Source: a virus (lineage: Duplodnaviria > Heunggongvirae > Uroviricota > Caudoviricetes). From it: a DNA stretch of 64,000 nt. Where the stretch lies: the IMG/VR virus record IMGVR_UViG_3300045988_134250. One strand, given 5' to 3'. A program made the translations under genes and the position numbers. Below the pieces are notes generated by a model. The model was not told the DNA's origin, did not search any database, and worked only from the letters and a program-made list of their open reading frames with translations. Positions 10,358-54,247 of this stretch are shown in pieces. Numbering within the stretch: the first letter of the stretch is position 1; each line of letters opens with the position of its first letter.

Positions 10358-10550
10358 AACAAAGCCTCTCAGTCATAACCTGGGGGAAACTGTATGCAGG
10401 GTGTGAAATGTGAGAAACAGACAGGCCACCAGTTCAGGGGGATGTGGTTCATAAATCCCCTCACTGGTGACAAGTGACTTTCATTAATCTTTGTGCGGGG
10501 GCCAGCTTCATTTGCTGGCATTAGATTAAAAATTAAACGGAGTGAATGAC

Positions 10551-10685
10551 ATGGATGTTATATTCGAATTATTAATGCTAATTGATCTGTTTATGAACGC
10601 TTCATTGACCACTCAAATACTCGCGTCAATATTTTTGTTACTCTTCTACCTGGTATTGAGGGAGTTAACAAAGCTACTAATGTGA
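10551..10685 (+). CDS. Small hydrophobic peptide (44 aa), candidate membrane toxin-like ORF
   Basis: ATG 10551 preceded by RBS ggagtg; translation MDVIFELLMLIDLFMNASLTTQILASIFLLLFYLVLRELTKLLM; below the 60-aa cutoff of the ORF track. Confidence 0.3.
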   Translation: MDVIFELLMLIDLFMNASLTTQILASIFLLLFYLVLRELTKLLM

Positions 10686-11339: not shown

Positions 11340-11607
11340 TGTCCTTCCTCCACGGATGACGGATACAAAAAAAGGCCGCACATGGCGGCCTGCTTTGGCG
11401 TTATGACTCCCTACCGCGCTTCGGCTGAAAGTTAATCGTCAAAAGAACCTTCAACGGGAGCCGTTAGCGCGATGGATTATGTGCAGTTTGTGATTTCCAA
11501 AATAGTGTCAACCACTTTTTGTGGATTTTATTTTTTGACCGAAATTTGGCCTAAATCATGTTGATGTAGTTGATTGTTTTTGTAACATAAAACTTCATTT
11601 TGTTTAC

Positions 11608-12231
11608 ATGAAGGACGGTGTAGTGAAGTTAAGGGTTTTAGGGACCGCGCTCGCGGCTATGTTGGGATGCGTATCTGTTAATACAGCCAATGCAACTGCG
11701 TTACCTGCACAATTCAGGGCAGGGCAGCAGGTTATGAATAACGCTGGTGGGGATCATTCACAAGCGGCAATTATGGACTTTTGCAAGAGAGAGGGCATTC
11801 CATTACGGCCTGTTGGAACTCAGTTTATTGGTAAAACTGACTTTTGCGTTTTTGCATATACAGCATATCTGACGGACAAAGCTATAACAAAAACAGGTTA
11901 TTCAACCAAAGATACTCTTTCCAGATTAAGTCAGGGATGGCAGCAATTCGAAGTGTATCGCCAGCAAGGATTAGGTGAGTTATTACAACCACTTTTTATG
12001 CTTGCGCTGGTGCCCGAGGGGCAGCAATTTTTGGTTAAAAAGGGAATGCTTCGCCAAAGTGATATTGCCGGGTTCGATAGCATGATGGCTTATGAGCGCA
12101 AACTAACCGAGCAGCGAAATAAAAAACCATCTGCTTCATGTGTGCAAAGTAAAACAGCAGAATACAGTGCAGTAGCCGGGCCTTTAGCCAAACAAATGGC
12201 AGAGCAATGGTGTAAAAAATACGGGCAATAA
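11608..12231 (+). CDS. Secreted/periplasmic protein of unknown function
   Basis: 207 aa; N-terminal signal peptide ...LGTALAAMLGCVSVNTANA with AXA site. Confidence 0.5.
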   Translation: MKDGVVKLRVLGTALAAMLGCVSVNTANATALPAQFRAGQQVMNNAGGDHSQAAIMDFCKREGIPLRPVGTQFIGKTDFCVFAYTAYLTDKAITKTGYSTKDTLSRLSQGWQQFEVYRQQGLGELLQPLFMLALVPEGQQFLVKKGMLRQSDIAGFDSMMAYERKLTEQRNKKPSASCVQSKTAEYSAVAGPLAKQMAEQWCKKYGQ

Positions 12232-12251
12232 GTTACGCAGCGGAGGCAGAA

Positions 12252-14168: not shown

Positions 14169-14480
14169 ATTGGCAGCCTCCTTTGACTAAGTTAAGGAGC
14201 TACCGCGTGAGGTTCCAATCTCAATGGCGGTAGCACTGACTGGGTTGGAACTACCGGCGTCAAAGGGAACCGGCCTGCCTTTCGGCAGCCCAGCCAGCAC
14301 TACCATTGATCTCTGAGCTAAACGCTAAGTATGGCTGTGCGATGGCATGACACAAAAAAAGACGCGTTCGGCGTCTGTGTCGCCTTTGACATTATCCGGG
14401 GTTCCAATCCCGGCACCCGTTTTTCTAAGGTGCCGTAGAAATATACCCCACGATAATGCCAGGGCGCAACAGTCAGTATT
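14169..14480 (-). ncRNA. Structured leader / candidate c4-like regulatory RNA region upstream of icd-ant
   Basis: Minus-strand RNA has element CCUUUGAC (plus 14259-14267) complementary to the icd SD region GUCAAAGGAGG (plus 14177-14187), several stem-loops, and an internal terminator. Confidence 0.3.
14354..14375 (-). terminator. Rho-independent terminator within the immI-like leader
   Basis: gacgc-gttcg-gcgtc hairpin (14361-14375) followed on the minus strand by a 7-U run (A-run 14354-14360 on plus). Confidence 0.5.
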
Positions 14481-30412: not shown

Positions 30413-30853
30413 TCACTCCACAACAAACCAGTCACAGGCCAGCAGGTCGCCAACTGAAGGCACCCACGGAACAACTACACCTTGTGCATTTTTTAAGGCG
30501 AAATAAGCACCATACGGAACGAGGTCGCCGGGGAAATATCCCTTAATGGCTTCCATTCGTGCCGGGTACTGTCCTTCAGGAACCAGCCAGCAGAATTGGT
30601 TTTCGCCGTTCCACCCGCGTCGAGCAACTTTCTTGCCTTCCTTCAGCCACATCAGCGCGTCTGAAAAGTCGGCTGCTTCAAGGTCGATTTCTTCTTGCTG
30701 GGTGGTGATGCCACCAGCAGAAATAGTTACGCTCCCGGTAAGATTAATCATCACGCCGTTGTCATCCGTAATGATGACCGTGGTTCCATTTTTTTTGTGA
30801 GCTTTGTATTTGGGACGGAACTTAAAAAGCTCTTTCGTTGCCATGTTATTCAT
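30413..30853 (-). CDS. DUF2829-like domain protein (Tad2-like fold candidate)
   Basis: 146 aa; C-terminal FSDALMWLKEGKKVARRGWNG...VPWVPSVGDLLACDWFVVE resembles the DUF2829 signature as recalled. Confidence 0.45.
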   Translation of the reverse strand: MNNMATKELFKFRPKYKAHKKNGTTVIITDDNGVMINLTGSVTISAGGITTQQEEIDLEAADFSDALMWLKEGKKVARRGWNGENQFCWLVPEGQYPARMEAIKGYFPGDLVPYGAYFALKNAQGVVVPWVPSVGDLLACDWFVVE

Positions 30854-33672: not shown

Positions 33673-34710
33673 ATGAGTAAGAAGTCGATCGAGAAAGAGT
33701 ACAAACGGTTCCTGCAAACCGCTGAACGGTGGAAAGAGCTGGTGGTCGCAAACTCTGTTTTCCATGATACCAGTTATGCTGGCGAGGAATTCCGCCATGT
33801 TGCATTAACGCATGACCAAAACATATTAGAAGAAGCTGAAAAATGTCTTGCTGAATGGAAAGCCTTCGTTGACATGTGCCGCGATGCCGACGGCAAAGCG
33901 TCGAACATTGTTGAGTCTGTATATTCTCCGATCCCATTCATCATTGAGGACACCAATCAAAGCACGCATGTTGTTGTGCAAAGCGCTACAACAACACGTA
34001 CATTTACACGTGAACAATTGCTCAAAAAATACGACAAAATCATAAAGAAAAGCCTGAAAAATAGGGTTTTTTCTCAAATCGTAGGTGCTCTTGAAGAAGA
34101 ACAGCGCTTCTTTGAAGCTGAGCCTGAAGGCGAGATCTACCGGGCGCGTAAAGAGGCATATACAGATGTTGTGCTGACAACAAACATCGAAGGCAGCAAT
34201 GCCCTTTCTCGCTTTAGAGTTGGCGCACATGGCGCATTGGTTTTCGCAAGACTACCGAAGACAACGATCCCCGTTGTCAATAATGTTGGTGAGCGCCGGA
34301 GCATTACAATTTATTCTGGCGTCGAATCGGTACCTTGCAGCCTTCTCGGCGATTTTAACTTATATCGTGTTCGTGACCTGGAAAAACACCAGCCAAGCTA
34401 CGTTGCGAAGTCGTACATCTTAAGGAACATCGATATTCGCAATGAAAGCCTTAAGCAGAAATCCGCTAAGATGCTGGAGGATGCCGATCCGGCTATTCGC
34501 CATATCATTGAGCGTAAGATACGTACATCACGTGAAGCAATGGCAAGGCTGGATAAAATGGATCTGGAATTGTTAGACGTAATGATGGCCTCTGGAGACG
34601 ACCTGACCGGCATAAAACTGAATGAAGCTCGTAAAAAATACGGCAAAGCAATCGAAGAACGTTACGGATACACATTCCCCCAAACGCAGTACGCCGCGAA
34701 GCTCTGGTAA
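33673..34710 (+). CDS. Candidate C1-type immunity repressor (positional inference only)
   Basis: 345-aa ORF between rox/dre and pacB, the position of c1 in P1-family phages; operator-like motif at its 5' end; no motif-level confirmation. Confidence 0.3.
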   Translation: MSKKSIEKEYKRFLQTAERWKELVVANSVFHDTSYAGEEFRHVALTHDQNILEEAEKCLAEWKAFVDMCRDADGKASNIVESVYSPIPFIIEDTNQSTHVVVQSATTTRTFTREQLLKKYDKIIKKSLKNRVFSQIVGALEEEQRFFEAEPEGEIYRARKEAYTDVVLTTNIEGSNALSRFRVGAHGALVFARLPKTTIPVVNNVGERRSITIYSGVESVPCSLLGDFNLYRVRDLEKHQPSYVAKSYILRNIDIRNESLKQKSAKMLEDADPAIRHIIERKIRTSREAMARLDKMDLELLDVMMASGDDLTGIKLNEARKKYGKAIEERYGYTFPQTQYAAKLW

Positions 34711-39527: not shown

Positions 39528-39603
39528 TGGTGGCCCCTACCGGACTTGAACCGGTGACCGTGCGATTATGAGTCGCCCGCTCTAACCACTGAGCTAAAGG
39601 GCC
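39528..39603 (-). tRNA. tRNA-Ile2 (anticodon CAU, ileX-like)
   Basis: GGCCCTTTAGCTCAGTGGTTAGAGCGGGCGACTCATAATCGCACGGTCACCGGTTCAAGTCCGGTAGGGGCCACCA; near-identical to E. coli ileX as recalled; encoded CCA. Confidence 0.8.
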
Positions 39604-40032
39604 AGATTACTGTTAATTACGCTTACGCTTTTTGCCAGAACCGCGTAAGGCTTTTGCCGCTTGCTCTACCCCGTATGCAACCACCAGCAGAAACAATAAT
39701 GTCCACTCCGGGTTTTTATCGGCAAACGCCCAAAAATCCATCACTTGCAGCCACCTTTTAAGACAAAACGCCATTGCTGTTAGGTTGCGGTGCCGGGCGC
39801 CTCCCGGTGACGTTAACCAGTTAACAATTAACGCCGGATCACTTATGGATTCTCGTTACGCCAGTAAAAAGACCACCTTTACTGTTTTAACTGTTCCGCG
39901 TGCGCTTAGCCGCATTCACCGCAATGGTAAGAGCATTTGGCTGACTGGGCGGCGATGACGCCTGTACGCATTTGGTGATCCGGTTCTGCTTCCGGCATTC
40001 GCTTAATTAGCCAAATACCCTTAATGTTGCAC

Positions 40033-40119
40033 TGGCGGAGAGTAATGGAATCGAACCATCATCGCTTGCGCAATGGGACGGTTTTCAAGACCGCTTGAGC
40101 ACCATGCTCCCTACTCTCC
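40033..40119 (-). tRNA. tRNA-Ser (anticodon UGA), type II
   Basis: Acceptor GGAGAGT/ACTCTCC, anticodon arm CGGTCTTGAAAACCG identical to E. coli serT, long variable arm, T-loop TTCGATT, CCA end. Confidence 0.7.
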
Positions 40120-40491
40120 CGTTATTGTGGCGACCGGTGCTGATCTCCGGCTTGCGGTTATTTCAGACTCTCACGGGCGTTTAATTGCCCCGCCGAACAG
40201 CTCTTTTCCGCAATAGCTGCAATGTCTTTCGCGCATCAGCCTGCGCATTCACCACAATGTTGAGAACACTGGTTGTCACGCTGCAACGCAACATTTATTC
40301 GTAGATTGGGATATGACCCCGTTACGCCAGTGTTCTCAACGTTGTAGTGCCGGTTACGGTTCCGGCCAGACCTCTTCCTCAACGGGGTGTTCTCCATACG
40401 GACTACCGTTTATTGGTCGTTCCTGCGGTTTATGTTGTGAAGCCAGATGCTTATCTTCTGGTTGCTTCAAAGAGCTGCACTTCATCACAAC

Positions 40492-40565
40492 GGTAAGAGC
40501 ATTTATGGCTCGCATCGCGGGAAAAAGCCCACGGTAGAGAGTCGAACTCTACAAATGCTCTTACC
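40492..40565. repeat. 13-bp perfect inverted repeat enclosing a tRNA 3'-half-like element
   Basis: ggtaagagcattt (40492-40504) / aaatgctcttacc (40553-40565); on the minus strand the loop reads GTAGAG-TTCGACT-CTCTAC-CGTGGGC-TTTTT (T-arm plus acceptor-like 7-mer plus U-run); related copy at 39926-39938. Confidence 0.5.
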
Positions 40566-40573
40566 TGTTGTGT

Positions 40574-40649
40574 TGGTGCCGGTTAACGGGATCGAACCGC
40601 TGACCATTCGCTTACAAAGCGACTGCTCTACCAACTGAGCTAAACCGGC
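40574..40649 (-). tRNA. tRNA-Thr (anticodon UGU)
   Basis: GCCGGTTTAGCTCAGTTGGTAGAGCAGTCGCTTTGTAAGCGAATGGTCAGCGGTTCGATCCCGTTAACCGGCACCA. Confidence 0.8.
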
Positions 40650-40653
40650 AATT

Positions 40654-40740
40654 TGGTGGGGAGTGATGGAGTCGAACCACCCGAGTCGCAATGACAGTAG
40701 ATTTACAGTCTACCCCGCTACCCCTACGGACTAACTCCCC
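40654..40740 (-). tRNA. tRNA-Tyr (anticodon GUA), type II
   Basis: Acceptor GGGGAGT/ACTCCCC; anticodon arm GTAGACTGTAAATCTAC (E. coli tyrT: CAGACTGTAAATCTG); long variable arm; TTCGACT T-loop; CCA. Confidence 0.75.
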
Positions 40741-40745
40741 TAAAT

Positions 40746-40820
40746 TGGCGATGGTGGGTGGATTCGAACCACCGACCAGTTGGTTAACAGCCAACTGCTC
40801 TACCGCTGAGCTACACCATC
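40746..40820 (-). tRNA. tRNA-Asn (anticodon GUU)
   Basis: GATGGTGTAGCTCAGCGGTAGAGCAGTTGGCTGTTAACCAACTGGTCGGTGGTTCGAATCCACCCACCATCGCCA. Confidence 0.8.
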
Positions 40821-41888
40821 ACTTGCCGGGTACGTCTCCGGCGAGGGCTTCCACCTCCGTATGCTTTTCGGCGCACCGCGCCCTGGCTGCAATTCGGTAA
40901 CAGGGGATGCACAACCCTGGCTTCCAGCGTGATTAGCGCCTTCAGCATGACGGGATATACCCGTTACAAGAAGTTCTCCCAGGATGCCATTAAGCAATGG
41001 CTGTTACGCGGGAAGGACGCAACAGGTAAGGGCGCTGACCAGAAAGACCTGACCCTTCTCATTCATCTGGTTAATCACACCAGCGCCCTTGCCTGTTATG
41101 CCTCCCCGTTCCCTAATACACAGACGGGGACACTCTGCGGTCGATTTTTTTGACGGGGGACGACTCATACCCCGTGGCGTCTGGCTTCTTAGCCCGCTAC
41201 CATCATCAGATCATCGTTTGCATTTACTTTAATGGTCAGTTTCTAAACCGCCGCAAAGTCGCTAACCATGACGAAAACCCTAAAAAAGCCCACCCGAAGA
41301 TGGGCAAATACGCTACATCTCACACAAGAAAGAAGCCGACTGCCTGAGCTGGATTCACTTTCAAATGCCCGCTGAAAGGGATCACAAGTCGGCTTCTTTC
41401 TTGATGCGGCACTCTCTCCGCCCGTCACCGCTCTGTCTCGGTTGTCGCGTTTGCCACGCCAGCCGTAACGAGGTTTAAAGTCTTTACACGTTTCCATCAC
41501 TCGACTGCCGTCTGTGGCTGTTCGTTGCAGCGGGGGTGCCTCCCCCTGGGGATATCCCCGGCCTTACCCCATTCTTTCAAGACACAATGCAAGGCCACAT
41601 CCGCATAGGTGCATTACCGCAACATTAAGGAGACTCAGGGCAAAAGGTAACCGCCACAAAAATCCCTATGCCTCCTTAATGTTGAAGATGTGCATTGATG
41701 ATTAGATGCAGCATGTACCGTTACTCTCTGCCGGACCATCATCAATGAACACCTTAAAAAGACCTTCCGTGGCTCAACATGTATTGTCGTTTACTCCGCA
41801 AAGTGCTCTCTCTGAAACCACTTTCCGCACTAAACCTGCTGAACTTTGGCCTGCACGGTGCCAAAGCGTGCTCTTGCATTACTATACA

Positions 41889-41898
41889 TTTCTAACAC
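41889..41898 (+). promoter_or_regulatory. TTTTCTAACA-family motif copy
   Basis: catttctaacacttt in the ORF-poor region. Confidence 0.35.
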
Positions 41899-42044
41899 TT
41901 TAATTTGTTAAATGCTGGTGGGCGAACAATAACCAATAAGTGACTATCAAGCCCAGCAAGCGAAACGTGGGTACCGCCCACCAGCAAGGAAAATTCTATG
42001 TTAAGTTATCTTCACAATCAATACATTCGAATTGTGATTTTAGA

Positions 42045-42054
42045 TTTCTAACAC
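42045..42054 (+). promoter_or_regulatory. TTTTCTAACA-family motif copy
   Basis: agatttctaacacatt immediately 3' of the 402-aa gene stop. Confidence 0.35.
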
Positions 42055-42055
42055 A

Positions 42056-43264
42056 TTATTTCCCATAAAGATCTTCTACACCCCCATTCTTCTTATCCCA
42101 TTCGTTCGCCCATACCCGGCAAGCGTCAATGATTTCCTGACGACGATCTCCTTGCATGAACGGGATGCTTTCATGGAAACAGCTTGGAATGCAGGCCACA
42201 CTGAATACAGTATCAAACTCCGTCTGCTTGATTGCCTCCAGCGTCTCCGGACGCATTTTTAATTCATCGATTGGCGCATCCTTAGAGTCCATAATCCGGC
42301 GATATAAGCGCGGAAAATCCGTCTCCAGATACGCCATAATTTTATCTGCGAGACATTCGTCTATGTCGGTATTCCAGTCCTTTTCGAAGCCCGGCAGGCG
42401 ATAGTAAAGCGGCGTTCCCCATACCGATGGGATCACATCCATCGTTAACAGGCGATTGGTTCTGATTTGTTGATGGTAATTAGCCGTCAGCAGTGCTTCG
42501 CCACGCTGCCCAGTTTCCGCAACCAGGCCGTGCGGATACTCATGGATGTAGGCAATGGCATCCCTTCCATCATACATAAGTGGAAATGTCTCTGGTCTTT
42601 GTCCCATGCCACAAGCACGGTTCAGATCGTGACCAAGCTGTGAGCACTCTCGCTTTAATGTTTCGATAATGCTCTGCGCTGTAGCCAACTTTTTACGCAG
42701 TGTGACGCCTTCGCCTTGATAATCAATGCATTGCTGATTGAGCTTGGTTAAACGCTCTTTTAGTTCCCGGCGCTCTCTTTTCAGCGTGCGGTTATCCTTC
42801 TCCGCAACATCCAGCCGCTTTGTCAGGCTTGGCGGATAGTCTTTTTTGTAACGGTTCAAATCGGCTTCGGCAGATTTACGCAGTGTATTTGCCTGTTCAA
42901 GACGCGCTTCCAGATTGCCGATCTCATTACGCATATTCGCGGCAAATTGATTAACTGCATCACCCAGGCTTTCAACTGTCGCTGATACGCCTGTGACTTG
43001 TGAAAAACGGATCAAGCCATCATTAACTGCTTGTTGGTATTCCTCAAACTGATCCACCAGCTTATTGTAATCAACTGCCCCATCATCAAGCAGCTTGTTG
43101 ATTTCCGCCACCAGGTTATCTGTAGTGGCAATGACACTCTCGTGCAGTCGCTTTGACAGGTCATCACCCGGATTCCGTTTCTGTATAAGAGCGATTTGTG
43201 TGCGCAGCGTTTCAATTGCTGTCGAGATAATTTCCAGATTAGAAGTATCAGTGTGTTGACTCAT
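42056..43264 (-). CDS. Hypothetical protein: N-terminal coiled coil plus C-terminal globular domain
   Basis: 402-aa ORF, ATG 43264; operator-like motif 30 bp upstream; no recognisable catalytic motif. Confidence 0.55.
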   Translation of the reverse strand: MSQHTDTSNLEIISTAIETLRTQIALIQKRNPGDDLSKRLHESVIATTDNLVAEINKLLDDGAVDYNKLVDQFEEYQQAVNDGLIRFSQVTGVSATVESLGDAVNQFAANMRNEIGNLEARLEQANTLRKSAEADLNRYKKDYPPSLTKRLDVAEKDNRTLKRERRELKERLTKLNQQCIDYQGEGVTLRKKLATAQSIIETLKRECSQLGHDLNRACGMGQRPETFPLMYDGRDAIAYIHEYPHGLVAETGQRGEALLTANYHQQIRTNRLLTMDVIPSVWGTPLYYRLPGFEKDWNTDIDECLADKIMAYLETDFPRLYRRIMDSKDAPIDELKMRPETLEAIKQTEFDTVFSVACIPSCFHESIPFMQGDRRQEIIDACRVWANEWDKKNGGVEDLYGK

Positions 43265-43292
43265 TGCTATTCCCGTTACTTTGTTAAATTAT

Positions 43293-43302
43293 TTTTCTAA
43301 CA
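43293..43302 (+). promoter_or_regulatory. TTTTCTAACA motif copy
   Basis: atttttctaacatatt between 43264 gene start and upstream gene stop. Confidence 0.45.
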
Positions 43303-43377
43303 TATTTTATTAGTTTGATGACAGTATCGAAAGATGCAATAAACAAAAAACCCGCTAATTGGCGGGTTTTTATGCAA

Positions 43378-43692
43378 TTACTGTGTTGCAGCCTGATAAA
43401 TAAGATACGCGATAAATACAGGTACGATGGCCCATTGCAGCAATGAAAGTAGCCTCATTACTGTTATTGGGGTAACTCCATCCACGTATTGTTTCTCTGA
43501 CATTTTCCCGAACCAACTAACCGACAACAGTGCCGAGTTTTCCCCCAATTCCAGCTCTCTGAGAGCTTCACGGATTAACGGCGCTGTCACAGCCTTAACC
43601 GGTGTGCTCAACGTGATACTCCGCGTCCTCCCCGCATCGTCAGCGAACGCCAGACTCACATAATATTTTTTGCTCAATGTACAAACTCCCAA
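43378..43692 (-). CDS. Small membrane-anchored protein
   Basis: 104 aa; C-terminal hydrophobic helix LLSLLQWAIVPVFIAYLIY. Confidence 0.45.
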   Translation of the reverse strand: MGVCTLSKKYYVSLAFADDAGRTRSITLSTPVKAVTAPLIREALRELELGENSALLSVSWFGKMSEKQYVDGVTPITVMRLLSLLQWAIVPVFIAYLIYQAATQ

Positions 43693-43874
43693 TCATCAGC
43701 GCTTGCACTTTCCGGGGTTATGTGAACCTTATCGCCAGTAACAATATTGCGAGCTTCAAAACTTCCATTGATACGTTTCGAGATCTCAATACATAGAGCC
43801 TGCTGCCATGAGCGACGACGAGCGATAGCATTAGTTCCTGCAGGGATAAGTTCTGCCACGTTAAGTAACCGCAA
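43674..43874 (-). CDS. Hypothetical small protein
   Basis: 66-aa ORF overlapping downstream gene by 19 nt. Confidence 0.35.
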   Translation of the reverse strand: MRLLNVAELIPAGTNAIARRRSWQQALCIEISKRINGSFEARNIVTGDKVHITPESASADDWEFVH

Positions 43875-43888
43875 AACGATTTCTCCGT

Positions 43889-44383
43889 TTAATCAAGACA
43901 AACATACTCCGTGATAGCTTTTATGGCTTCAGCGGCACTGCGCGCCTCAAAGCAGTAGTAACCGGCTTCTGTGAGGCGAGTCATCCAGACGAGTTGTTCG
44001 GGAGTCAGGCGATTTCTCCCATGTTTCATCTCAATGCGCATTCCGTGGTATCCCCCACAAGCAAGGTCTATAGAAAGATCGGGATATCCCTTCTTTTGGC
44101 CCTCTGCCACCATTTTTATTGCCGTCCTTATGCCTCGCAGGCCACCGTTTGGAGTGGCGTGAGTATGCTCATACACATAACGCATATTGCGATACATCCA
44201 GTCCAGGACGCGAACCTGCTCGTAATGCTCATGGTTCCTTTTGATTAGATCTGGGTTTTTCTCCAGTTCTCTAAGAGCTGCGGCATGTGGGGATGTTTCA
44301 GAATATTCACTACGACGCCTTCTCTTTCGCGCTATTTTTCTAACACACCCATTGATAGTAAATATGCGAAATAATAACAACAA
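43889..44383 (-). CDS. VRR-NUC domain nuclease (PD-(D/E)xK family)
   Basis: 164 aa (TTG start, uncertain); ...YEQVRVLDWMYRN...GYPDLSIDLACGGYHGMRIEMK...LTPEQLVWM fits VRR-NUC; an operator-like motif lies inside codons ~12-17. Confidence 0.55.
   Translation of the reverse strand: MLLLFRIFTINGCVRKIARKRRRRSEYSETSPHAAALRELEKNPDLIKRNHEHYEQVRVLDWMYRNMRYVYEHTHATPNGGLRGIRTAIKMVAEGQKKGYPDLSIDLACGGYHGMRIEMKHGRNRLTPEQLVWMTRLTEAGYYCFEARSAAEAIKAITEYVCLD
44336..44345 (+). promoter_or_regulatory. TTTTCTAACA motif copy
   Basis: tatttttctaacacaccc. Confidence 0.4.
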
Positions 44384-44519
44384 CGTTAGATTTGTAAAAC
44401 AAGAGAGATACTACTCAAGGATGGTCTATATGCAACAGGTCGGATTTGCTTTTAGAGTAAAGAGTGACCTTAATCAACAAGGAGGGTAAATCGCATGGCA
44501 TTTACCCAACCTGTTATTT

Positions 44520-44780
44520 TTAAAGGGTTATTTTATCCTGTTCGGATAATTCTTTGATTGTCTTGTCGATTGCGATCAACCAACCTTCATAGGTTAAATC
44601 ATCAACAAGTTCTACCAACTTATCATCGGTGTGAGGAAAGTATATCCAGCTCCAGTTCGCAGGGTTTTCTGCTTTTCGCAGCGTAAAAACCTTCTTGTAT
44701 CGGTGGAACTCAAGGATATACCCCTTCGATATGGAATATTCCTTTAGGTCTTCGACCGTAAACCTACGATTCTTTCGCAT
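44520..44780 (-). CDS. Hypothetical protein
   Basis: 86-aa ORF. Confidence 0.4.
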   Translation of the reverse strand: MRKNRRFTVEDLKEYSISKGYILEFHRYKKVFTLRKAENPANWSWIYFPHTDDKLVELVDDLTYEGWLIAIDKTIKELSEQDKITL

Positions 44781-44782
44781 GG

Positions 44783-45217
44783 CTACCCCATAATTCGATA
44801 TTTCTCTATAGACTCGTCGTAACTTGTGTACACGTATGGCTCTGTATCATCGGCATAAGGTGCGACTTCCAGAGCATGAACAGGATTGTATACCGCGTCA
44901 TTTTCCAGGCGATCGCTCGAATACAGATGCCCAGCCAAAACCGTAAGCGCCGGGCGACTCATTTTGTAGATCTCTGCCACATCACTATCTACAACTTGTC
45001 CAAATGATATGTCGCCGCGCTCCAGCAATAACGTTTTAAGCGCAGGCCACCACGGCCCATAAAGGTGATAAAGCTGTGGATCTCGTTTCAGCCTTTCCAC
45101 CATGCCATTCAGATATGCATCCAGAAACGCCTCTTCACTCCTGCCATTGAGCGCCTGCGGCAAAATGTCCTCAAGGTAGGATTCCGTCGGTTTTACAGTG
45201 TCAATTAATGTCGTCAT
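44783..45217 (-). CDS. Hypothetical protein
   Basis: 144-aa ORF immediately upstream of the DarB-like gene. Confidence 0.45.
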   Translation of the reverse strand: MTTLIDTVKPTESYLEDILPQALNGRSEEAFLDAYLNGMVERLKRDPQLYHLYGPWWPALKTLLLERGDISFGQVVDSDVAEIYKMSRPALTVLAGHLYSSDRLENDAVYNPVHALEVAPYADDTEPYVYTSYDESIEKYRIMG

Positions 45218-45253: not shown

Positions 45254-48200
45254 TTAGGCCGCATCGGCGATTATTTTACGCAGTTCATCTACCGAGTAAC
45301 GCGTAGATACCATCCATGCAGGACGGTCAAAGTTCACATCAGCAACCGGGTTTGCTTCAAAATTCCAGAAACGTCCGCCAATCTTCTTAATCGCGTCTTT
45401 GGCGTTCCGTATTGTCGAGGAACCTGGTTGGTCGGCAATGAGATAAACCGCGCCAACGTCCTCGCTGACGCTCCACCAGCGCCCGCGAACACGCGCCTTA
45501 GCGCGAATCGGCTTATCATTAACCACAATGATATAGTCATCATTCGCCGCTTCATCAGCTCTGGCTTCAGCCACTGCCGCCTGCTCTTCTCTTTTGCTTT
45601 CAGCCTGCTCAAGCCTTTCCGCGATCTCTGATTCAGTGGCCCCGCCGTTTTTCAGCGATACATAGTCCTGCCACGTTGCCGATTTGAGCGTATCCGGCAA
45701 CTCATTCACATAGTCGCCGTCTTTCAACTCACGGGCGCGGCGGGTAGCCATTTCTACCAGGCGATTAACAGAAACAGCATCAGCAAAATCGTCCTTACTA
45801 ATGTGTTTTTCATCAAATGCATTGATGACAGCCCCCACCTTAATCCACTGTGCTGCCGGTGATTCCAGGGGGTTATCAGCCTGAACAATGGCGAGTTTCG
45901 CTCCATCTACCCCATTATTCGCCAGCTGTTCCAATGCCGCCCATCCATCTGCATCACTGAGTGATTTATATTGCTCAAACAATGCATCGCGCCAGGCCAC
46001 CAGCGCAGAACGTGTTTTTTCGATCTTCGCCTTAATTTTCGCGATCTTGACCTGATTAAACATCCGTTCAATATCATCGATATTGCTAAAGGCTTTCATC
46101 CTGCCCTGGAATAAACGGTATGCCAGCACGGTCCTCCAGAATGATTCCAGACCTTCTCCGGACGGTTTGCGGAACAAGCTAAGAATATCTTCAGAAGTGA
46201 CTTTATTAAGCGAACGACCTGACAGACCACGCCCAGCCATCCAGTTTTCGAACTCATGGGCAACATCATCCATCGTTGCCTGTGCGCCCCATGCCTGCAT
46301 TCCCTGGGTGTAATCATACCCATACAATGCCTGGAGGAATCCCTCGCCGTCCACGATATTCAGCGGGTTATCACTGGCTTGTATTTTTGCCACTTCACGC
46401 TTCAGCGCCTCGTCGTTGCCATCAGGATATATCCATCGCTCAGGTGCTATATCCGATGCTCGCCCGATTTTTTGGCCTATCACGCCATCATAGGCCGATG
46501 ACAGCGCGATCTGACCATCATCTGTGCGATATGCCCAGTATTTAATAGCTGACCCACCGCCCCATGCATTACCAGGTTTACCAGCAATAACATTCATTAC
46601 CCCATTGCGAATAGCATCATAGAACTGATCGCGAGTAAGTATTGTTGATAGCTGGTGGCACTGAACACCACGCGCAGCCGTTGCGCGCGATTCAGCTACC
46701 CCCTCTTCAAAAGTTACCGCTTCAATCACAGAGTCAAACGGCAATGTAACGATTGACCCCGGTGCTCGAGCGTAACGACTTGCTCTATCCAGCCAGGCGA
46801 TACGGCAGAGGTATTGTGCTTTTTCACCGTCAATTTTTTCCACCCGGACAATCGCTGTTGTTTCGCGATCATCAATGACTGCACGGTAATAACTACCTTT
46901 ATGCAACAGGATATTCTTGTCAGTGCGCATATATTCCTGTGGGTTCTGAATAACATCGATACTGATATCCAGCACACCAGACTTAATAGCGCGCTCCACA
47001 TCACCACGAGAGCGTTTCATTATGGTATCCGCGTCTTTTGCCCTGGTGATCGCAAACCGCAGCACCCGCGCACGTTTTCTGTAGCTACTCAACTGCTCAA
47101 GCGCGTATTTTTGCCCATTCCTGTTCGTACCCGCTTTTATCAGGTCGTCAAGATTGCGCTGGTAATACTCTATCTGTTCCATCGCGCTTTTCAGTTCTGT
47201 CTCCATCATGCCGATATCTTTTCCGGCGGCGTTTGCCGCTTTCAGGTAGATATCGAGAGCATTGTTGGCCTCGCGCTGTGCTTTCAGTTTCAGACGTTCT
47301 TCACGCTCTTGCGCCTGGCGAGCCATGATTGCGCGGCGTTCTTCCGGGTTTGCCGCCAGCATAATGGCGCGTTCATCAGCATCATCCGCATCACCATTGG
47401 CGATCTCTGACATGTCGGATGTCATCACCATCTTGATCCAGTCTTTCTTACGTTTCAGCGTATCCAGACGGAAGTCGTCGAATGTGCCTTTGCCACAATA
47501 GTAGTGAACATTGACCTTTTCTTGCGGTGAACCTACGCGCGCACCGCGCCCATTTCGTTGGTCGATACTGGCTGGTGTCCAGGGTAGTGTCAGGTGGTGG
47601 ATATCGGTTGTCCCGATGTGCAGGTTAATACCTACTTCAGCCTTCTTGTTACAGATTATGATGCGCGTGCGACCTTCGTTATAGTCGGCGGCAATACCTT
47701 CCATGCCCTCAAGGCCAGCATCATTTTTAGCGGAGAGATAATCCTCATATTGGGCAAGTTTGCTGTAGTAGGTTTCCCATGCCCCTTCTTTGTATTCACC
47801 GTTTTTGTTTGGAGTAGGTTCGGTCGGCTTATTCACCTTCTTCAGCTTGATGCCACCAGCCTGGCTAACTGTCGTCGCATTGATAATGCCAATCTCCTGC
47901 TCCGGCATTTGCAGTGCACTGGCGATAATACGGCGCAGCTTCTGGTGCTGGGCTTTTTCATCAATAAAGACGATCTGCTTACCGTTCTTCAGACCTTCAC
48001 GAAGATTTTCGATCAGCGCGGCATACTTCGGCGGGATGGGGTGCGACACCTGCTGCATATCAATGCCGGCAGCCGCAATGGCCTTCAGTATTTCAGCTTC
48101 CAGTTCAATGCTGGCACGTATTTCAACATGCGTCGGATGTTCACTAAAAGCGGTCTTCACTACCTTGCTGGTACGCGTACTGACCAGCCCGCCAGCGCCG

Positions 48201-51200
48201 TCTTCCTCGGCCTCATCAACATCATCTGCCACTTTACCGCCAGCTACTTTTGGCAAGGCATCAGCAATAGCTTTTACCTGGTCTGCAAGCTCAACGGGGA
48301 ACTGGAATGTAATCGCACTGGCATACAGATCCGGGTCTATAGCAACCTTATCCATGTCACGGATGATGGAGAAGATGAAATCATCCGGTTTGTCGTTAGT
48401 GATATGCCCGTTTTCATCGACTGTCAGCTCATCATTGCGACTTAACTCCTGAGCACGCTTACGAAGCTCTTCATAAGCAGTCTCCTGCTCCCCTGTCATC
48501 GGGATCTGCAAGGTGTTCTCGATGATGTCGGGAATTTTAACCGTCGCTCCGACATCTGCAGCAGTCTTCAGAGTGGTCCAACGATGGAAAATACCACGCA
48601 GGCCGTCAAGGTTCTGGAAGCCCACCAGCCCCTGCTTCTCTTCCACTTCCCCGGAAATTTTCTGGACCTGAACTGTGGCTGTTTTGCCAAACACACGAAC
48701 GAAATCATCAGGCGTAATGATGCCCATACGCATCCACTCTTCCTGCGGAATGACAGTAGACAGCATGTTGAAGGCATCAATCGGACTGTTCACCAGCGGT
48801 GTTGCCGTCAGCATGACTACACCACGCCCGTTGTTGCGTTTCATCATGTACGCAGCTTTTACAGCCATGTCGCGGGCCATCTTGGATACTGCCGGGTTAG
48901 GCAAATATGCCAGTTGTCCCGCTTCACGCCCGGCATTAAAGGAGTTGCGGTAGTTATGCCCCTCGTCGGCAATCACGCTATCGAAGTTCATATCCTCAAA
49001 GTAAGGGATATTCTGCTTCTTCGTTGTACCGGTATTCGCGGCCTGATCCTTAATCTTGTTCTTCTTCTGCGCATCACGGTGTTTACCGGACGCCAGGTCA
49101 AGACGCCCCATTTCCACAGCATTAAAGACAGCTTGCTGTGAGTTCTCCTCGATGGTTTTTTCTCGTAGCGGGATAGACGCGAATTGTTCTTTTGTCATGA
49201 TGACCGTTCGCCAATTTGACGACGGGATCATGTTCATACGCTGAACGATAACGGCGCTGGAGGACTCTTTCACAACATTTCTGGTAAGAGGCTGCCCGTT
49301 ACTGTCGAGGCGTGGTTCGCCATTTTCATCAAGCACCGGCGCGGTCAGAATATTTCCGCTGTCATCACGAACTTCATCCAAACCGATAAACATCATATTG
49401 GCGAAGGCATCAGCACTGTAGAAACTCTGTGCCTCGTGATACCAGTTCTGATAAACCGCCTTCGGAACAACAATACACGTGCGTTTAGTGCGACCTGTTT
49501 CGAAGTTATACGCCTCAAGCGCAAGCGCGGTCGTGGTTTTACCCAGCCCGGTACCAAATCCCATGATGCCACGCCCATCTTCTGACAAGCGCCGAACTTC
49601 TTCATTCTGATAAGTCAGAGGAATGCGCTTTCCACTAATCCCTTCCAGGCCAAGCGGTGCGTCAGAATGTGTGAACGGAATGAAACCATTGAATGCGTCG
49701 TTATAGTCACGGGCTATCTGATCCGCCTGCGGGTGGGTGCGTAACCAGTCGTTAAAGCTAACTTCCAGTTGAGCAATTTTATCCAGGTACTCGTTAGCGT
49801 TCTGCCCACGCGGTTTAACACCGTTCAGGTAGTTTTCTAACTGGTTCAGGAAGCCGTCTTTATTGTTGGCCTTCTTGAACTCATTCCCGTTTTTGCCGTT
49901 TACGGTTCGTAGCTGATAGCCGGTAAATACCCCGTCCTTACCTTCGTAATCGTCCGGAGATACCAGAATGCCATCGACGACCTTCAGATCAGGTTCAGTG
50001 TACTTAAACTCGTCATAGCCCTGCTCTGCCAGGAACTCTTTTATCAAGCGGCGATCCAGCCAGCGGGCATTCAGATTAACGGTGACTTTATTTAGTGGCG
50101 TGAAAATGCGTTTCTCTTCGATTTTCGCCAACTGACGCTCAAAGTTCGCTTTCTGCTCACCTGTTGACGCATCACGCCAGCCCACCAGCAGTGCTGTTTT
50201 GGTTGCAACATCGCCGCTGGTGGCGCGGTCCATCGGCAGCAGACAGCCATACCCATCAATAGCGATATCATCAAATTTCGCCAGGTATTCAAGGACCGCG
50301 TCGTCGTCCTCTGGCAGTTCACCAGCAAACGCCTCACGAAAGTCGCCCAGCGTTATAGGATTAAGGGCTACATCACTAAAAAGATGTGCTATCACTTGTT
50401 CAGGACGCGTAAAGTCAATACCGGCAGCACCATCCGTTACATCAAGTCGCCCTGCCAGAAGGTCAGAAGTGGAACCATCCTGTTTCACATTGCCAGTGAA
50501 CGTCATCCAGTTTTTAGCGCCAGCTTCAGCAAGCCCATTCAGCTTAATCGCGTGCGGTGGTCCATACTTCGCAACTTCTGCTGCCGCCAAGCGGGATGCA
50601 TCTGCCAGTTTGTCATCAACGTTCACCCCCAGGTTACGCAAATCAAGTGCCTTGTTGATCAACTGACCTATCAGTGCACCGCGCATAACGCGCTCCCTGT
50701 CTTTTTCTCGCTGCTTGCCAGCAAAGCGAATCATTGCTGCCACTTCATCACTGACAACCGATGGATAGTCGGACGCGATCGCCGATATCTGGTCCCATGA
50801 CAAAGCCAGAATCCCGTTTGTTGACTGGAACGCGATCTGCAGATCGCCAAACGTCGAAACACCATATCGACTTACATCAAGCGCGGAGGATTTGGTTGTC
50901 GTGTCCTGAACCCATTTCAGACCATCAAACTCATGCCAGATACCGCCTACAAGGCGTTTATCGCCCACTTTCGCGCCCTGCCATGCCTGAGTAGTTACGC
51001 CGAGCAAATCCCAATTGATGCGACTATCAAAGCGACGAGATAGCGCGGTTTTCATCGACTCATTGGATACACGACCGTCTTTTTTCACCACTAGGGTATT
51101 GCGGAAGCTGGTACGTTCCATGTCGCCGTAAACAAATCGCTTCCCTTCGGTTGTAAACCATTTCCCTTTGAGGAAGGTAACCCAAAGGACGTTTGCCGAT

Positions 51201-52090
51201 TTGAGCGTCGAATCATCCGTATCGGGGATCATCTCCAGGAAGGCTTCCGGGTGTTTACGCAATACCCATACGTCCACCACGGTATCTGTACCTGATTCAC
51301 TGAACGTACCGGAAGGCATACGATGCGCGCCCAAAAATTCCGCTTTACGGCTGACTTTATCGCGCAATTTTTTGTATTTCGTACCATCAGTCATGCCATT
51401 CGGCACCACCAATACGATAAGCCCACCAGGTTTAACCTTGTCGATCGTGCGCAGCACAAAGTAATTGCCAACGTTCTTCTCGTTTGCATATGCCGGATCA
51501 AGCCCTGCAACGCCGGAACGGCCTTCGCCAAACGGTACGTTACCAACAGCGTGGTCATACATTGCGTCTTTCGCCGCCAGAGCCTCAAACGCCCCAATGT
51601 TCACATCGTCTTCCGGGTGCAACAGCTGGTTGATTCGACCGGAGATCGGAGACAGCTCGGCGCTGGTCATTATCATTCCCTGCCGTTTTGTCTCCTGGAA
51701 AATACCCGTGCCAGCTGATGGTTCCAGTACGTGACCGCCATCAATACCGTAGTCAGCAAACAGCTCCCATATACCTTCAGCCATAAACTGTGGCGTGTAG
51801 TATTCGTATTGGCTGCCCTCACCATCTGTCAGGCCGCCTTCACCGGTATACCCAGCAAGAATCTGACGTTGTTCGTCAGTTAATTTCGCCCCATCGAAGC
51901 CGGGCGGAAGGGAATTAAGAAGATTTACTGCGGCATTGTTTGCTGCCCGGCGTGTTTTCTGAATACTGACGCCATCGGCTTTCCTGACGCCAAAGGTCGC
52001 AACAGCACGTAATTTATGCAACCGACTAACAATTTCAATCAGTTCGCCTAAGCTGGAGGCTTCACTGATTGAATGAAGTAGTTTGTCCAA
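45254..52090 (-). CDS. darB: DarB-like giant antirestriction protein: N6-adenine methyltransferase fused to SF2 helicase
   Basis: 2278 aa (P1 DarB ~2255 aa as recalled); N-terminal MTase motifs VLEPSAGTGIF and NVPFG; helicase Walker A GTGLGKTT and DEGHNYRN box. Confidence 0.75.
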   Translation of the reverse strand: MDKLLHSISEASSLGELIEIVSRLHKLRAVATFGVRKADGVSIQKTRRAANNAAVNLLNSLPPGFDGAKLTDEQRQILAGYTGEGGLTDGEGSQYEYYTPQFMAEGIWELFADYGIDGGHVLEPSAGTGIFQETKRQGMIMTSAELSPISGRINQLLHPEDDVNIGAFEALAAKDAMYDHAVGNVPFGEGRSGVAGLDPAYANEKNVGNYFVLRTIDKVKPGGLIVLVVPNGMTDGTKYKKLRDKVSRKAEFLGAHRMPSGTFSESGTDTVVDVWVLRKHPEAFLEMIPDTDDSTLKSANVLWVTFLKGKWFTTEGKRFVYGDMERTSFRNTLVVKKDGRVSNESMKTALSRRFDSRINWDLLGVTTQAWQGAKVGDKRLVGGIWHEFDGLKWVQDTTTKSSALDVSRYGVSTFGDLQIAFQSTNGILALSWDQISAIASDYPSVVSDEVAAMIRFAGKQREKDRERVMRGALIGQLINKALDLRNLGVNVDDKLADASRLAAAEVAKYGPPHAIKLNGLAEAGAKNWMTFTGNVKQDGSTSDLLAGRLDVTDGAAGIDFTRPEQVIAHLFSDVALNPITLGDFREAFAGELPEDDDAVLEYLAKFDDIAIDGYGCLLPMDRATSGDVATKTALLVGWRDASTGEQKANFERQLAKIEEKRIFTPLNKVTVNLNARWLDRRLIKEFLAEQGYDEFKYTEPDLKVVDGILVSPDDYEGKDGVFTGYQLRTVNGKNGNEFKKANNKDGFLNQLENYLNGVKPRGQNANEYLDKIAQLEVSFNDWLRTHPQADQIARDYNDAFNGFIPFTHSDAPLGLEGISGKRIPLTYQNEEVRRLSEDGRGIMGFGTGLGKTTTALALEAYNFETGRTKRTCIVVPKAVYQNWYHEAQSFYSADAFANMMFIGLDEVRDDSGNILTAPVLDENGEPRLDSNGQPLTRNVVKESSSAVIVQRMNMIPSSNWRTVIMTKEQFASIPLREKTIEENSQQAVFNAVEMGRLDLASGKHRDAQKKNKIKDQAANTGTTKKQNIPYFEDMNFDSVIADEGHNYRNSFNAGREAGQLAYLPNPAVSKMARDMAVKAAYMMKRNNGRGVVMLTATPLVNSPIDAFNMLSTVIPQEEWMRMGIITPDDFVRVFGKTATVQVQKISGEVEEKQGLVGFQNLDGLRGIFHRWTTLKTAADVGATVKIPDIIENTLQIPMTGEQETAYEELRKRAQELSRNDELTVDENGHITNDKPDDFIFSIIRDMDKVAIDPDLYASAITFQFPVELADQVKAIADALPKVAGGKVADDVDEAEEDGAGGLVSTRTSKVVKTAFSEHPTHVEIRASIELEAEILKAIAAAGIDMQQVSHPIPPKYAALIENLREGLKNGKQIVFIDEKAQHQKLRRIIASALQMPEQEIGIINATTVSQAGGIKLKKVNKPTEPTPNKNGEYKEGAWETYYSKLAQYEDYLSAKNDAGLEGMEGIAADYNEGRTRIIICNKKAEVGINLHIGTTDIHHLTLPWTPASIDQRNGRGARVGSPQEKVNVHYYCGKGTFDDFRLDTLKRKKDWIKMVMTSDMSEIANGDADDADERAIMLAANPEERRAIMARQAQEREERLKLKAQREANNALDIYLKAANAAGKDIGMMETELKSAMEQIEYYQRNLDDLIKAGTNRNGQKYALEQLSSYRKRARVLRFAITRAKDADTIMKRSRGDVERAIKSGVLDISIDVIQNPQEYMRTDKNILLHKGSYYRAVIDDRETTAIVRVEKIDGEKAQYLCRIAWLDRASRYARAPGSIVTLPFDSVIEAVTFEEGVAESRATAARGVQCHQLSTILTRDQFYDAIRNGVMNVIAGKPGNAWGGGSAIKYWAYRTDDGQIALSSAYDGVIGQKIGRASDIAPERWIYPDGNDEALKREVAKIQASDNPLNIVDGEGFLQALYGYDYTQGMQAWGAQATMDDVAHEFENWMAGRGLSGRSLNKVTSEDILSLFRKPSGEGLESFWRTVLAYRLFQGRMKAFSNIDDIERMFNQVKIAKIKAKIEKTRSALVAWRDALFEQYKSLSDADGWAALEQLANNGVDGAKLAIVQADNPLESPAAQWIKVGAVINAFDEKHISKDDFADAVSVNRLVEMATRRARELKDGDYVNELPDTLKSATWQDYVSLKNGGATESEIAERLEQAESKREEQAAVAEARADEAANDDYIIVVNDKPIRAKARVRGRWWSVSEDVGAVYLIADQPGSSTIRNAKDAIKKIGGRFWNFEANPVADVNFDRPAWMVSTRYSVDELRKIIADAA

Positions 52091-52241
52091 AGGATTTCCC
52101 CCTCTAAACCGTAAAAAATTCCGCTATGCGGTACGGTTGAGAGGGTATGGAGAATGTTATTTTCAGGGGGACGATACTACCGTCAAAATCACATACTCCC
52201 CATAGTTTGCCTACTTATTAACCCATGACCGGGAGAAAAAT

Positions 52242-52727
52242 ATGGCAAACATTGAACCTCGCTGGCTAATTGAAGCCCGTAAGCACATTGGCTTGACTGA
52301 AATAAAAGGCGCTAAACACAACCCTGAAATCGTTCAGTTCTGGCGCGACATCAAGCGCGGCGGAATTAAAGACGATGAAACGCCGTGGTGCGCAGCATTT
52401 GTCGGTGCAATGCTGGAACGTGTAGGCATTCGCTCAACAAGATTTGAGTCGGCAAAATCCTATCTGGATTGGGGCGAGAAATTAGATACACCGGCATACG
52501 GATGTATCGTTGTATTTACCCGCGTAGGCGGTGGGCACGTAGGCTTCGTTGTCGGACGCCGCGCCAATGGCGATCTGCTTGTCCTGGGTGGGAACCAGGG
52601 GGATGCGGTTAATATTCGCGCATTCCCAACATCAAGAGTGTCTGGCTATCGCTGGCCTGCTGGCGAACCACGCAATACCGCCCTGTTACCAGTCGGAGAC
52701 GCAGCAACCTCAACTAATGAGGCATGA
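52242..52727 (+). CDS. CHAP/NlpC-P60-like putative peptidoglycan hydrolase
   Basis: 161 aa; conserved Cys (ETPWCAAFV) and His (GGGHVGFVVG) in papain-like arrangement; divergent from darB. Confidence 0.45.
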   Translation: MANIEPRWLIEARKHIGLTEIKGAKHNPEIVQFWRDIKRGGIKDDETPWCAAFVGAMLERVGIRSTRFESAKSYLDWGEKLDTPAYGCIVVFTRVGGGHVGFVVGRRANGDLLVLGGNQGDAVNIRAFPTSRVSGYRWPAGEPRNTALLPVGDAATSTNEA

Positions 52728-53888: not shown

Positions 53889-54230
53889 AGTTACGGCCTC
53901 ACTAACAGGTTTAACAACCTGCCACCCGCTGTCAAACAGGTGGCAGGACGTGACAGGGTTGACAGACTGGCGTTAGTGAAACCAGCAGGCCGAAGCCTCC
54001 CCATCACGCCCCACCATAATTCGGGCGTAACGCGGTTTACGGACACAAAAATACCGCAATATCGGAAATCTGCGGTTGTCCGCACTAACATTCAGGCTGT
54101 CAAACCCGGTCGCAGAATTTGCTACGACGGCATGAATATAAGCCTGAAAACATGGAAGATCAACTAAAAATTTCAGCAATGGATGACTTCAGTCGATGAT
54201 GCAGATCATACATTCCGTTTTAGAAACAGC
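53889..54230 (-). ncRNA. Structured leader / candidate c4-like regulatory RNA region, copy 2
   Basis: Minus-strand RNA has UCACUAAC (plus 53972-53979) complementary to SD region GUUAGUGAGG (plus 53897-53906) plus 9-bp stem cctgccacc/ggtggcagg (53918-53947). Confidence 0.3.
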
Positions 54231-54237: not shown

Positions 54238-54247
54238 TTTTCTAACA
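54238..54247 (+). promoter_or_regulatory. TTTTCTAACA motif copy
   Basis: aattaattttctaacataaat; degenerate copy ttttagaaac at 54217-54226. Confidence 0.45.

Follow-up and report, generated by a model that had tools for sequence, protein, structure and literature searches.

The closest described counterparts of the locus considered here are found in bacteriophage P1 and Escherichia phage D6 (NC_050154 / MF356679). In P1, Ulx is a head-internal Dar protein that works together with DarB and DdrB against EcoB/EcoK-type restriction (PMC9024508; PMC12810830). P1 pmgM and the pmgR-pmgS pair are located ~65 kb from darB-ulx. In-frame P1 deletions of pmgM and pmgS were described by Gonzales et al. (2022; PMC9024508), and both genes were scored as non-essential in a CRISPR interference (CRISPRi) screen (PMC10695390). 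The deletion phages plaqued normally, and neither protein was named in the virion proteome text consulted (PMC9024508; PMC10695390). Anti-restriction was unchanged in the pmgM and pmgS knockouts (PMC9024508). P1 pmgR is essential for virion assembly, and its deletion leads to tails and incomplete heads that are not joined (PMC9024508). Standalone VRR-NUC proteins are dimeric Holliday-junction resolvases, as shown for psNUC, stNUC, and saNUC (PMC4103454). Homologues of Ulx, PmgM, PmgR, and PmgS are encoded side by side in a viral DNA stretch of 64,000 nucleotides (nt) (IMG/VR record IMGVR_UViG_3300045988_134250), the whole of which is hereafter referred to as the window; the block studied here occupies positions 42056-45217 on its minus strand. 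This block very probably represents known P1-family biology arranged in three units, and not a new anti-defence operon.

The block contained six minus-strand open reading frames (ORFs) of 144, 86, 164, 66, 104, and 402 amino acids, with darB on one side and a tRNA cluster on the other, in agreement with the initial annotation of this DNA. That annotation had placed the ORFs upstream of darB, whereas darB is located at 45254-52090 on the minus strand and the six ORFs lie downstream of it in the direction of transcription. It had also described the proteins as unknown, although the D6 record already annotates the likenesses to ulx, pmgM, pmgR, and pmgS, and its statement that none is a recognisable structural gene was too strong, given that Ulx is a P1 virion protein and that virion assembly in P1 requires pmgR. 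The block was 99.3% identical at the nucleotide level to D6 positions 9085-12246, and the segment 43200-44560 was 99.9% identical to one E. coli plasmid. All six genes were conserved in order and orientation in D6, where they correspond to orf14 (ulx-like), orf13, orf12 (pmgM-like), orf11, orf10 (pmgR-like), and orf9 (pmgS-like). The block is therefore already known, its genes and their P1 counterparts being present in the public D6 and P1 annotation and in the P1 literature. Judged from its sequence, the window is a mosaic relative of D6, a P1-like phage-plasmid. Outside the block, the window differed from D6 by an extra tRNA-Tyr and several indels, among other features. Furthermore, the D6 record lists pmgS as 407 amino acids, counted from a start further upstream where the window has no start codon, and places the tRNAs on the plus strand. 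The region was carried by about 119 plasmid records from E. coli, Salmonella, and Shigella, in which the six-gene order was kept.

Three diverged lineages, with 89, 74, and 71% DNA identity, were compared with the window, giving four lineages in total. The ratio of nonsynonymous to synonymous substitution (dN/dS) against these three relatives was 0.05-0.18 for all six ORFs. The six ORFs are thus real genes, because they are conserved in three diverged lineages under purifying selection. Synonymous divergence from the relative L008 (NZ_CP104667) was 0.12 for ulx, 0.52 for pmgS, and >1.0 for pmgM, orf11, and orf13, which is an approximately ten-fold difference between adjacent genes and therefore indicates recombination mosaicism inside the block. 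A search of the six proteins against NCBIfam returned only coiled-coil noise for PmgS.

The six genes do not form a single operon, because a hairpin follows orf13, a terminator follows pmgR, and conserved promoter/operator blocks precede both pmgM and pmgS. We infer that the block belongs to at least three separately controlled units, namely, darB-ulx-orf13, pmgM-orf11-pmgR, and pmgS. The hairpin just 3' of the orf13 stop (44484-44507, minus strand) had a folding energy of -17.7 kcal/mol (z -4.45), was kept in the four lineages, and was not followed by a U-tract. Two candidate sigma-70 promoters were predicted for the second unit. Promoter A (TTGCAT-16 nt-TAGTAT; 44408-44435, minus strand), upstream of the pmgM TTG start, was better conserved across the four lineages than any other part of the orf13-pmgM spacer, and promoter B (TTTACA-16 nt-TATTAT; 44371-44398, minus strand) overlapped the annotated pmgM start, scored 10/12 in a consensus scan, and kept its -10 element in three of the four lineages. 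The genes pmgM, orf11, and pmgR were tightly packed and were followed by an intrinsic terminator (43346-43371, minus strand) composed of a 10-bp stem and a U-run (-19.5 kcal/mol, z -4.5), of which the stem was kept in the four lineages, with a variable loop and closing pair. Rfam yielded only sub-threshold matches within 42056-45217, centred on this terminator hairpin.

The first unit is probably expressed late. The regions upstream of the D6 capsid, tail, portal, lysis, and mat genes shared a box, AAATCACA(A/C/T)A(C)T, with a -10 hexamer from offset 15; the resulting late-gene motif consists of AAATCACAnAcT, 3 nt, and then the -10 element. A matrix was built from 11 D6 late-operon upstream regions, with the darB site outside the training set, and strong sites in the window were found only before gene 7, gene 26, mat, prt, ddrB, orf16, and darB. 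The candidate D6-type late promoter of darB, AAATAACATTCTCCATACCCT (52142-52162, minus strand), is located outside the block; it scored 18.1 and was back to back with a site scoring 25.7 at 52186 on the plus strand. No late promoter above background was identified within 42056-45217, and candidates at 44519 (score <8) and 42040 (10.1) were rejected as lying inside the shuffle background. Because a candidate late promoter precedes darB, as would be expected for virion-packaged proteins, darB-ulx-orf13 probably constitutes a late unit driven by the D6-type promoter upstream of darB. The P1 late box AAGTGACTT had only one usable match in the window, which indicates that D6 uses another late box. 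The D6-type late-promoter sites were located at 6735, 10409, 11496, 52162, 58211, and 62330 (minus strand) and at 52186 (plus strand), and the back-to-back pair falls between darB and a lysozyme-like gene at 52242-52727. The difference between the D6 late box and P1 AAGTGACTT fits the low identity (31%) of the D6-type Lpa to its P1 counterpart. The heptamer AAGTGGT, a first guess for the late box, led nowhere and was dropped.

The other two units carry copies of a repeated motif. Its core, TGTTAGAAA, had 13 copies in the window where 0.6 would be expected, and none of 100 shuffles reached this number. The extended site is asymmetric, of about 17 bp, TGTTAGAAAAnTAAttt, and its matrix gave 15 sites scoring 16.8-31.4; the next-best score in the window (11.5) was inside the shuffle background (about six matches above 9). 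On the D6 gene map, the sites were located before c1, lpa, ref, c4-icd-ant, repL, hrdC-dmt, the tRNA leader, and pmgS, as well as just after ref and at the pmgM start; the identity of the C4 RNA/icd/ant locus was confirmed by Rfam. Two pairs of sites in inverted orientation, approximately 29 bp apart, were present at 3438/3467 and 19018/19047. These pairs sit before hrdC-dmt and between ppp and pdcB, and resemble divalent P1 operators such as Oban a/b. The P1 record lists C1 operators at corresponding places, including Oc1, Oref, Omat, Oc4, OrepL, Odmt, Oban, Olpa, O26 (pmgL-pmgM), and OpmgRa/b (pmgR and pmgS). The motif is accordingly interpreted as an immunity-repressor operator, its binding protein being assigned from position. 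On the other hand, the P1 operator consensus ATTGCTCTAATAAATTT had no match in the window at up to 3 mismatches. The protein at the c1 position (33673-34710, plus strand, 345 amino acids) is annotated in D6 as a prophage repressor similar to P1 C1; it gave nothing against P1 C1 by tblastn at an expect value (E) of 1e-3 or lower, had no Pfam match, and belonged to a PHROG family without known function, so that the D6 annotation seems to derive from position only. The absence of the P1 consensus and the lack of C1 similarity of this protein point to a heteroimmune operator specificity. A full-text literature search for the operator motif returned nothing relevant, the D6 genome paper (PMC5800970) being outside the scope of that search.

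Within the block, the strongest operator precedes pmgS. A -10 element (TAAAAT) abuts the operator O(pmgS) in TGTTAGAAAAATAATTT (43286-43309, minus strand); the operator itself, at 43302-43286, is 22 nt before the pmgS ATG and has the highest score in the window (31.4). The combined block ACTAATAAAATATGTTAGAAAA.TAA.TT had only two variable positions in the four lineages, although their overall identity was 71-100% and the flanks were diverged. It is analogous to P1 OpmgRa/b. The other copy, O(pmgM), TGTTAGAAAAATAGCGC (44329-44345, minus strand; score 20.2), covers codons 13-19 of pmgM, and its position is analogous to that of P1 O26/Op82 before pmgL-pmgM. Its core was invariant and the reading frame was kept across the four lineages, with few substitutions around it, mostly synonymous. 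The pmgM start codon shifted between lineages: the Shigella lineage had an ATG four codons before the operator, and another had an ATG just past the core. The operator therefore falls within the pmgM coding region or directly at its beginning. Two further copies just past the pmgS stop (42053 and 41897) were assigned to the next unit; the first of these (42037-42053, minus strand; score 28.8) belongs to the tRNA/tci operon and not to pmgS.

Based on these elements, a repressor encoded at the c1 locus would bind the 17-bp site in the lysogen and silence pmgM-orf11-pmgR and pmgS, alongside ref, lpa, repL, c4-icd-ant, hrdC-dmt, and the tRNA operon. Upon induction, the pmgM-orf11-pmgR and pmgS units would be expressed early; the transcript of the former would stop at its strong intrinsic terminator, and pmgS would be transcribed from its own -10 element abutting the operator. 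The late D6-type promoter would subsequently drive darB-ulx-orf13, and Ulx would act with DarB against type I restriction.

The first ORF of the block (44783-45217, minus strand, 144 amino acids) is, by sequence similarity, an orthologue of P1 Ulx. It was 46% identical to P1 Ulx over 138 of its 144 residues (tblastn, E 1e-38), matched PHROG 1629 "Ulx-like anti-restriction" at E 2e-59, and had a dN/dS of 0.07-0.15. Its start at 45217 directly follows the darB stop at 45254 on the same strand, and the P1 darB-ulx-lxc arrangement is alike. Ulx is the only member of the block with a known anti-restriction role, and its packaging and protective effect have been demonstrated in P1 only. In contrast to P1, the third gene here is orf13 (44520-44780, minus strand, 86 amino acids), which sits at the lxc/bof position and shows no similarity to lxc/bof; the res-mod genes come next in P1, whereas the pmg genes come next in D6-type genomes. 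The protein belonged to PHROG 6844 (function unknown), had only 6 relatives in 5.8 billion proteins, and had a dN/dS of 0.08-0.18. Its position and similar size led to its consideration as a diverged Lxc/Bof co-repressor, which was rejected: BLASTP gave no alignment and hhalign a probability of 0.2%, and its low-confidence AlphaFold model (predicted local distance difference test, pLDDT, 63) showed no Lxc match by Foldseek in BFVD and nothing at E < 0.05. For both orf13 and orf11, no P1 counterpart was found by tblastn, and no annotated family was found in Pfam, PHROG, or NCBIfam.

The pmgM-like gene (43889-44383, minus strand) encodes a VRR-NUC nuclease of 164 amino acids as annotated, with an uncertain start. 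The protein matched Pfam VRR_NUC (PF08774) at 27.0 bits (cut-off 23.8; residues 45-150), P1 PmgM with 57% identity (residues 29-163; tblastn, E 1e-41), and psNUC in the PDB (4QBL; E 9e-14), the GYPDL and IEMK motifs aligning with GYPDL and IEIK of psNUC. The PD...ExK catalytic residues were intact, as they are in P1 PmgM. By analogy with psNUC (4QBL), stNUC (4QBO), and saNUC (4QBN), which share its single domain, similar size, and aligned GYPD...(I/L)E(M/L)K motif, PmgM is a standalone VRR-NUC nuclease that most likely works as a dimer and cleaves four-way or branched DNA. A feature not shared with these enzymes is its N-terminal extension, basic and about 28 residues long, which varies between lineages and is encoded across the operator.

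The gene orf11 (43674-43874, minus strand, 66 amino acids; PHROG 7206, function unknown) has a GGAG 8 nt before its TTG start and was conserved in all lineages (52-79% identity, dN/dS 0.14-0.17). By eye it resembled a Tad2-like protein encoded elsewhere in the window, and it was considered as a Tad2/DUF2829-like protein. One of four orthologues matched the Tad2-like family (PF11195) at E 0.2, which is below the cut-off, and the other tests were negative: a profile search against the PDB gave no Tad2, the hhalign probability was 0.4%, and shuffle z-scores were 0.5-2.4. The next gene is pmgR-like (43378-43677, minus strand). Its longest ORF has 104 amino acids from 43692, but the protein most likely starts at TTG 43677, which overlaps the orf11 stop (TTGA) and is the start used in the D6 record, and would thus have 99 amino acids. 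Although tblastn alone gave no match to P1, homology to PmgR was indicated by reciprocal PHROG cross-hits (the window protein to phrog_3177, E 2e-6; P1 PmgR to phrog_9115, E 0.0018). P1 PmgR is a small soluble protein of about 72 amino acids, whereas the 99-residue form has a membrane-anchor-like tail that P1 lacks: a C-terminal hydrophobic segment with a 19-residue hydropathy maximum of 2.0-2.6 in the four lineages, compared to 0.88 in P1 PmgR. The tail was conserved across the four lineages as a feature, not as a sequence. Functional equivalence to P1 PmgR is uncertain because of this difference.

The last gene, pmgS-like (42056-43264, minus strand), encodes a protein of 402 amino acids whose N-terminal part is a coiled coil, followed by a conserved middle domain and, at the C-terminus, an alpha-CTD-like helix-hairpin-helix domain (alpha-CTD, the C-terminal domain of the RNA polymerase alpha subunit). 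It matched PHROG 1660 at E 1e-146 and P1 PmgS with 21% identity over residues 11-395 (tblastn, E 4e-11). The AlphaFold model was poor (pLDDT 61; predicted template modelling score, pTM, 0.26), showing four long helices to residue 217, leaving the middle domain (residues 225-303) unmodelled, and covering the C-terminal region in part. The family of this C-terminal domain was very small, with 26 cluster representatives out of 1.84 billion; the domain occupied the C-terminus in all 26, in proteins of 320-470 amino acids. Searching the PDB with a profile of 19 family members gave RNA polymerase alpha-CTD (8syi_A) at E 8e-5 over profile positions 332-389 and, more weakly, RAD51 N-terminal domains. 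Distant members matched Pfam RNA_pol_A_CTD (P0040 at 24.0 bits against a cut-off of 23.8, P0045 at 21.2, and P0041 at 17.8), and another matched HHH_5 weakly. Foldseek of the model gave no match at E ≤ 0.001, and alpha-CTD and RAD51 domain types were recovered locally at E > 0.1 (target-normalised template modelling score 0.60-0.78, root-mean-square deviation 2.1-2.9 Å, 55-58 residues). The last ~60 residues of the family therefore align with alpha-CTD and RAD51 N-terminal domains by profile, in some members by Pfam, and locally in structure; the PmgS domain differs in being attached to a long coiled coil and a middle domain. From the model and the profile matches, residues ~329-385 can be regarded with moderate confidence as a helix-hairpin-helix DNA-binding module, and PmgS is predicted to be probably a DNA-binding protein.

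Compared with the pmgL-pmgM and pmgR-pmgS units of P1, the window contained homologues of PmgM, PmgR, and PmgS, with pmgR immediately upstream of pmgS and repressor operators before both groups. It differed in operator sequence, in the absence of pmgL, and in the joining of pmgM, orf11, and pmgR in one unit. Furthermore, pmgS has its own operator after a terminator, and no LPpmgL-type late promoter was found.

An alternative is that pmgM, pmgR, and pmgS are morphogenetic and that PmgS is a prohead scaffolding or head-morphogenesis protein. The GenBank and RefSeq product names imply this, as does the placement of PHROG 1660 in the "head and packaging" category; the long coiled coil of PmgS and the disruption of virion assembly by pmgR deletion in P1 also speak for it. 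Nevertheless, the P1 phenotypes of pmgM and pmgS described above are difficult to reconcile with such a role, and the pmg genes lack a strong preceding late promoter and carry repressor operators instead, which is typical of early genes. PmgS had no significant match to a scaffold family and ends in a DNA-binding-type domain, PmgM is a nuclease, and the D6-type PmgR appears membrane-anchored. A morphogenetic function of the three genes is therefore unlikely.

The initial annotation had grouped all six genes in one operator-controlled operon and suggested for it a role alongside darB in counter-defence or DNA processing. Some of its elements were well founded: the 164-residue protein does carry the VRR-NUC signature and an operator-like motif far above chance in its 5' end, and the coiled-coil protein has its own operator-preceded start. 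In its favour are the true membership of Ulx in the Dar system, the nuclease nature of PmgM, the probable DNA binding of PmgS, the faint Tad2-like match of one of the four orf11 orthologues, and the gene order kept in the plasmids. However, the terminator and two separate promoter/operator regions divide the block, and the proximity of darB and the pmg genes is not a conserved linkage because they are ~65 kb apart in P1. P1 anti-restriction did not depend on pmgM or pmgS, and the orf11-Tad2 link failed in the PDB profile search and the shuffle tests. PADLOC, the anti-defence check, matched no defence or anti-defence family meaningfully to any of the six proteins, its output being limited to one weak sub-threshold match of Ulx (E 0.0097) and, for PmgS, noise from the coiled coil. 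Counter-defence as deduced from the neighbourhood of darB thus holds for ulx and not for the other genes, and one operon of this kind is decidedly improbable.

There is an even smaller chance that, beyond Ulx, the genes form an early host-takeover or counter-defence set, in which PmgS would bind DNA or mimic alpha-CTD, orf11 would be a diverged minimal Tad2-like sponge, and PmgR would be membrane-anchored; the reading keeps this chance because plaquing and type I anti-restriction, assayed on laboratory E. coli, were the only traits examined in the P1 knockouts. Finally, TGTTAGAAA lies near -10-like hexamers at several sites and its binding protein was assigned by position, but it is hardly conceivable that it represents an Lpa late-activator site or another promoter element instead of a repressor operator, because the late genes (capsid, tail, portal, lysis, and mat) are marked by a different box, AAATCACAnAcT with a -10 element, of which none was above background in the block, and because TGTTAGAAA precedes c1, lpa, repL, ref, and c4-icd-ant, which make up the P1 C1 regulon and are not late genes.

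Several points nevertheless weigh against the three-unit, P1-like interpretation. Operator binding, transcription units, and phenotypes are here predictions from DNA sequence, and the label "C1 operator" follows from position, given that the c1-locus protein has no C1 similarity. O(pmgM) was the weakest of the exact-core copies and is located 25-55 nt downstream of the candidate promoters, inside a coding frame, which makes the mode of repression puzzling. Read-through from darB into pmgM may occur because the orf13 hairpin has no U-tract. The PmgS of the window itself missed the Pfam alpha-CTD model, and the close PmgS alignment gave a negative result when compared with E. coli alpha-CTD by hhalign. 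The P1 phenotypes may not transfer, as PmgS is only 21% identical and the D6-type PmgR has its distinct tail.

The significance of the locus is small, as its regulatory logic copies that of P1. The analysis has corrective value in that the genes fall into three units, not one operon, and that a tie to anti-restriction applies to ulx only. The labels "head morphogenesis" and "scaffolding" on pmgS and pmgM are without support, and a repressor-controlled nuclease and a probable DNA-binding protein fit better. The alpha-CTD-like C-terminal domain of the PmgS family and the membrane-anchor-like tail of the D6-type PmgR are small additions. The D6-type operator and late-promoter consensus could be of use in annotating the related phage-plasmids of E. 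coli, Salmonella, and Shigella, which number about 120.

Other features were observed elsewhere in the window. A gene at 30413-30853 (minus strand) encodes a 146-residue protein (D6 orf114, annotated DUF2829) with an N-terminal extension of about 57 residues. Residues 58-146 strongly matched Tad2 proteins of known structure (9eib ModTad2, E 8e-21; 8v3e Tad2, E 1e-20), as well as AcrIIA7 and SPO1 Gp34.65, and this gene is likely a signal-sponge (Thoeris) anti-defence gene of the phage-plasmid. Five tRNAs were located at 39528-40820, all on the minus strand by ARAGORN and Rfam (Met/Ile2-type CAT, Ser-TGA, Thr-TGT, Tyr-GTA, and Asn-GTT), whereas the D6 record contains only three. The tRNA-Tyr (40654-40740) falls between two D6 alignment blocks and appears inserted relative to D6. 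Between pmgS and tRNA-Asn, approximately 1.2 kb (40821-42056, minus strand) is without annotated genes. Its leader at 40821-41308 was 91% identical to the P1 ban-operon leader (P1 68855-69347), and the region contained a promoter-like site at 42021-41993 and, at 41305-41288, a strong hairpin resembling a terminator, besides the operator copies at 42053 and 41897. No Rfam family matched this stretch, which could specify a regulatory RNA. Two C4 antisense RNA genes were identified at 14223-14433 and 53936-54141, both on the minus strand (Rfam, 77 and 69 bits), together with an isrK-like RNA and a c4-a1b1 target element, indicating two separate immI-type icd/ant loci. The C4 locus at 53936-54141 was preceded by a TGTTAGAAA operator at 54247.

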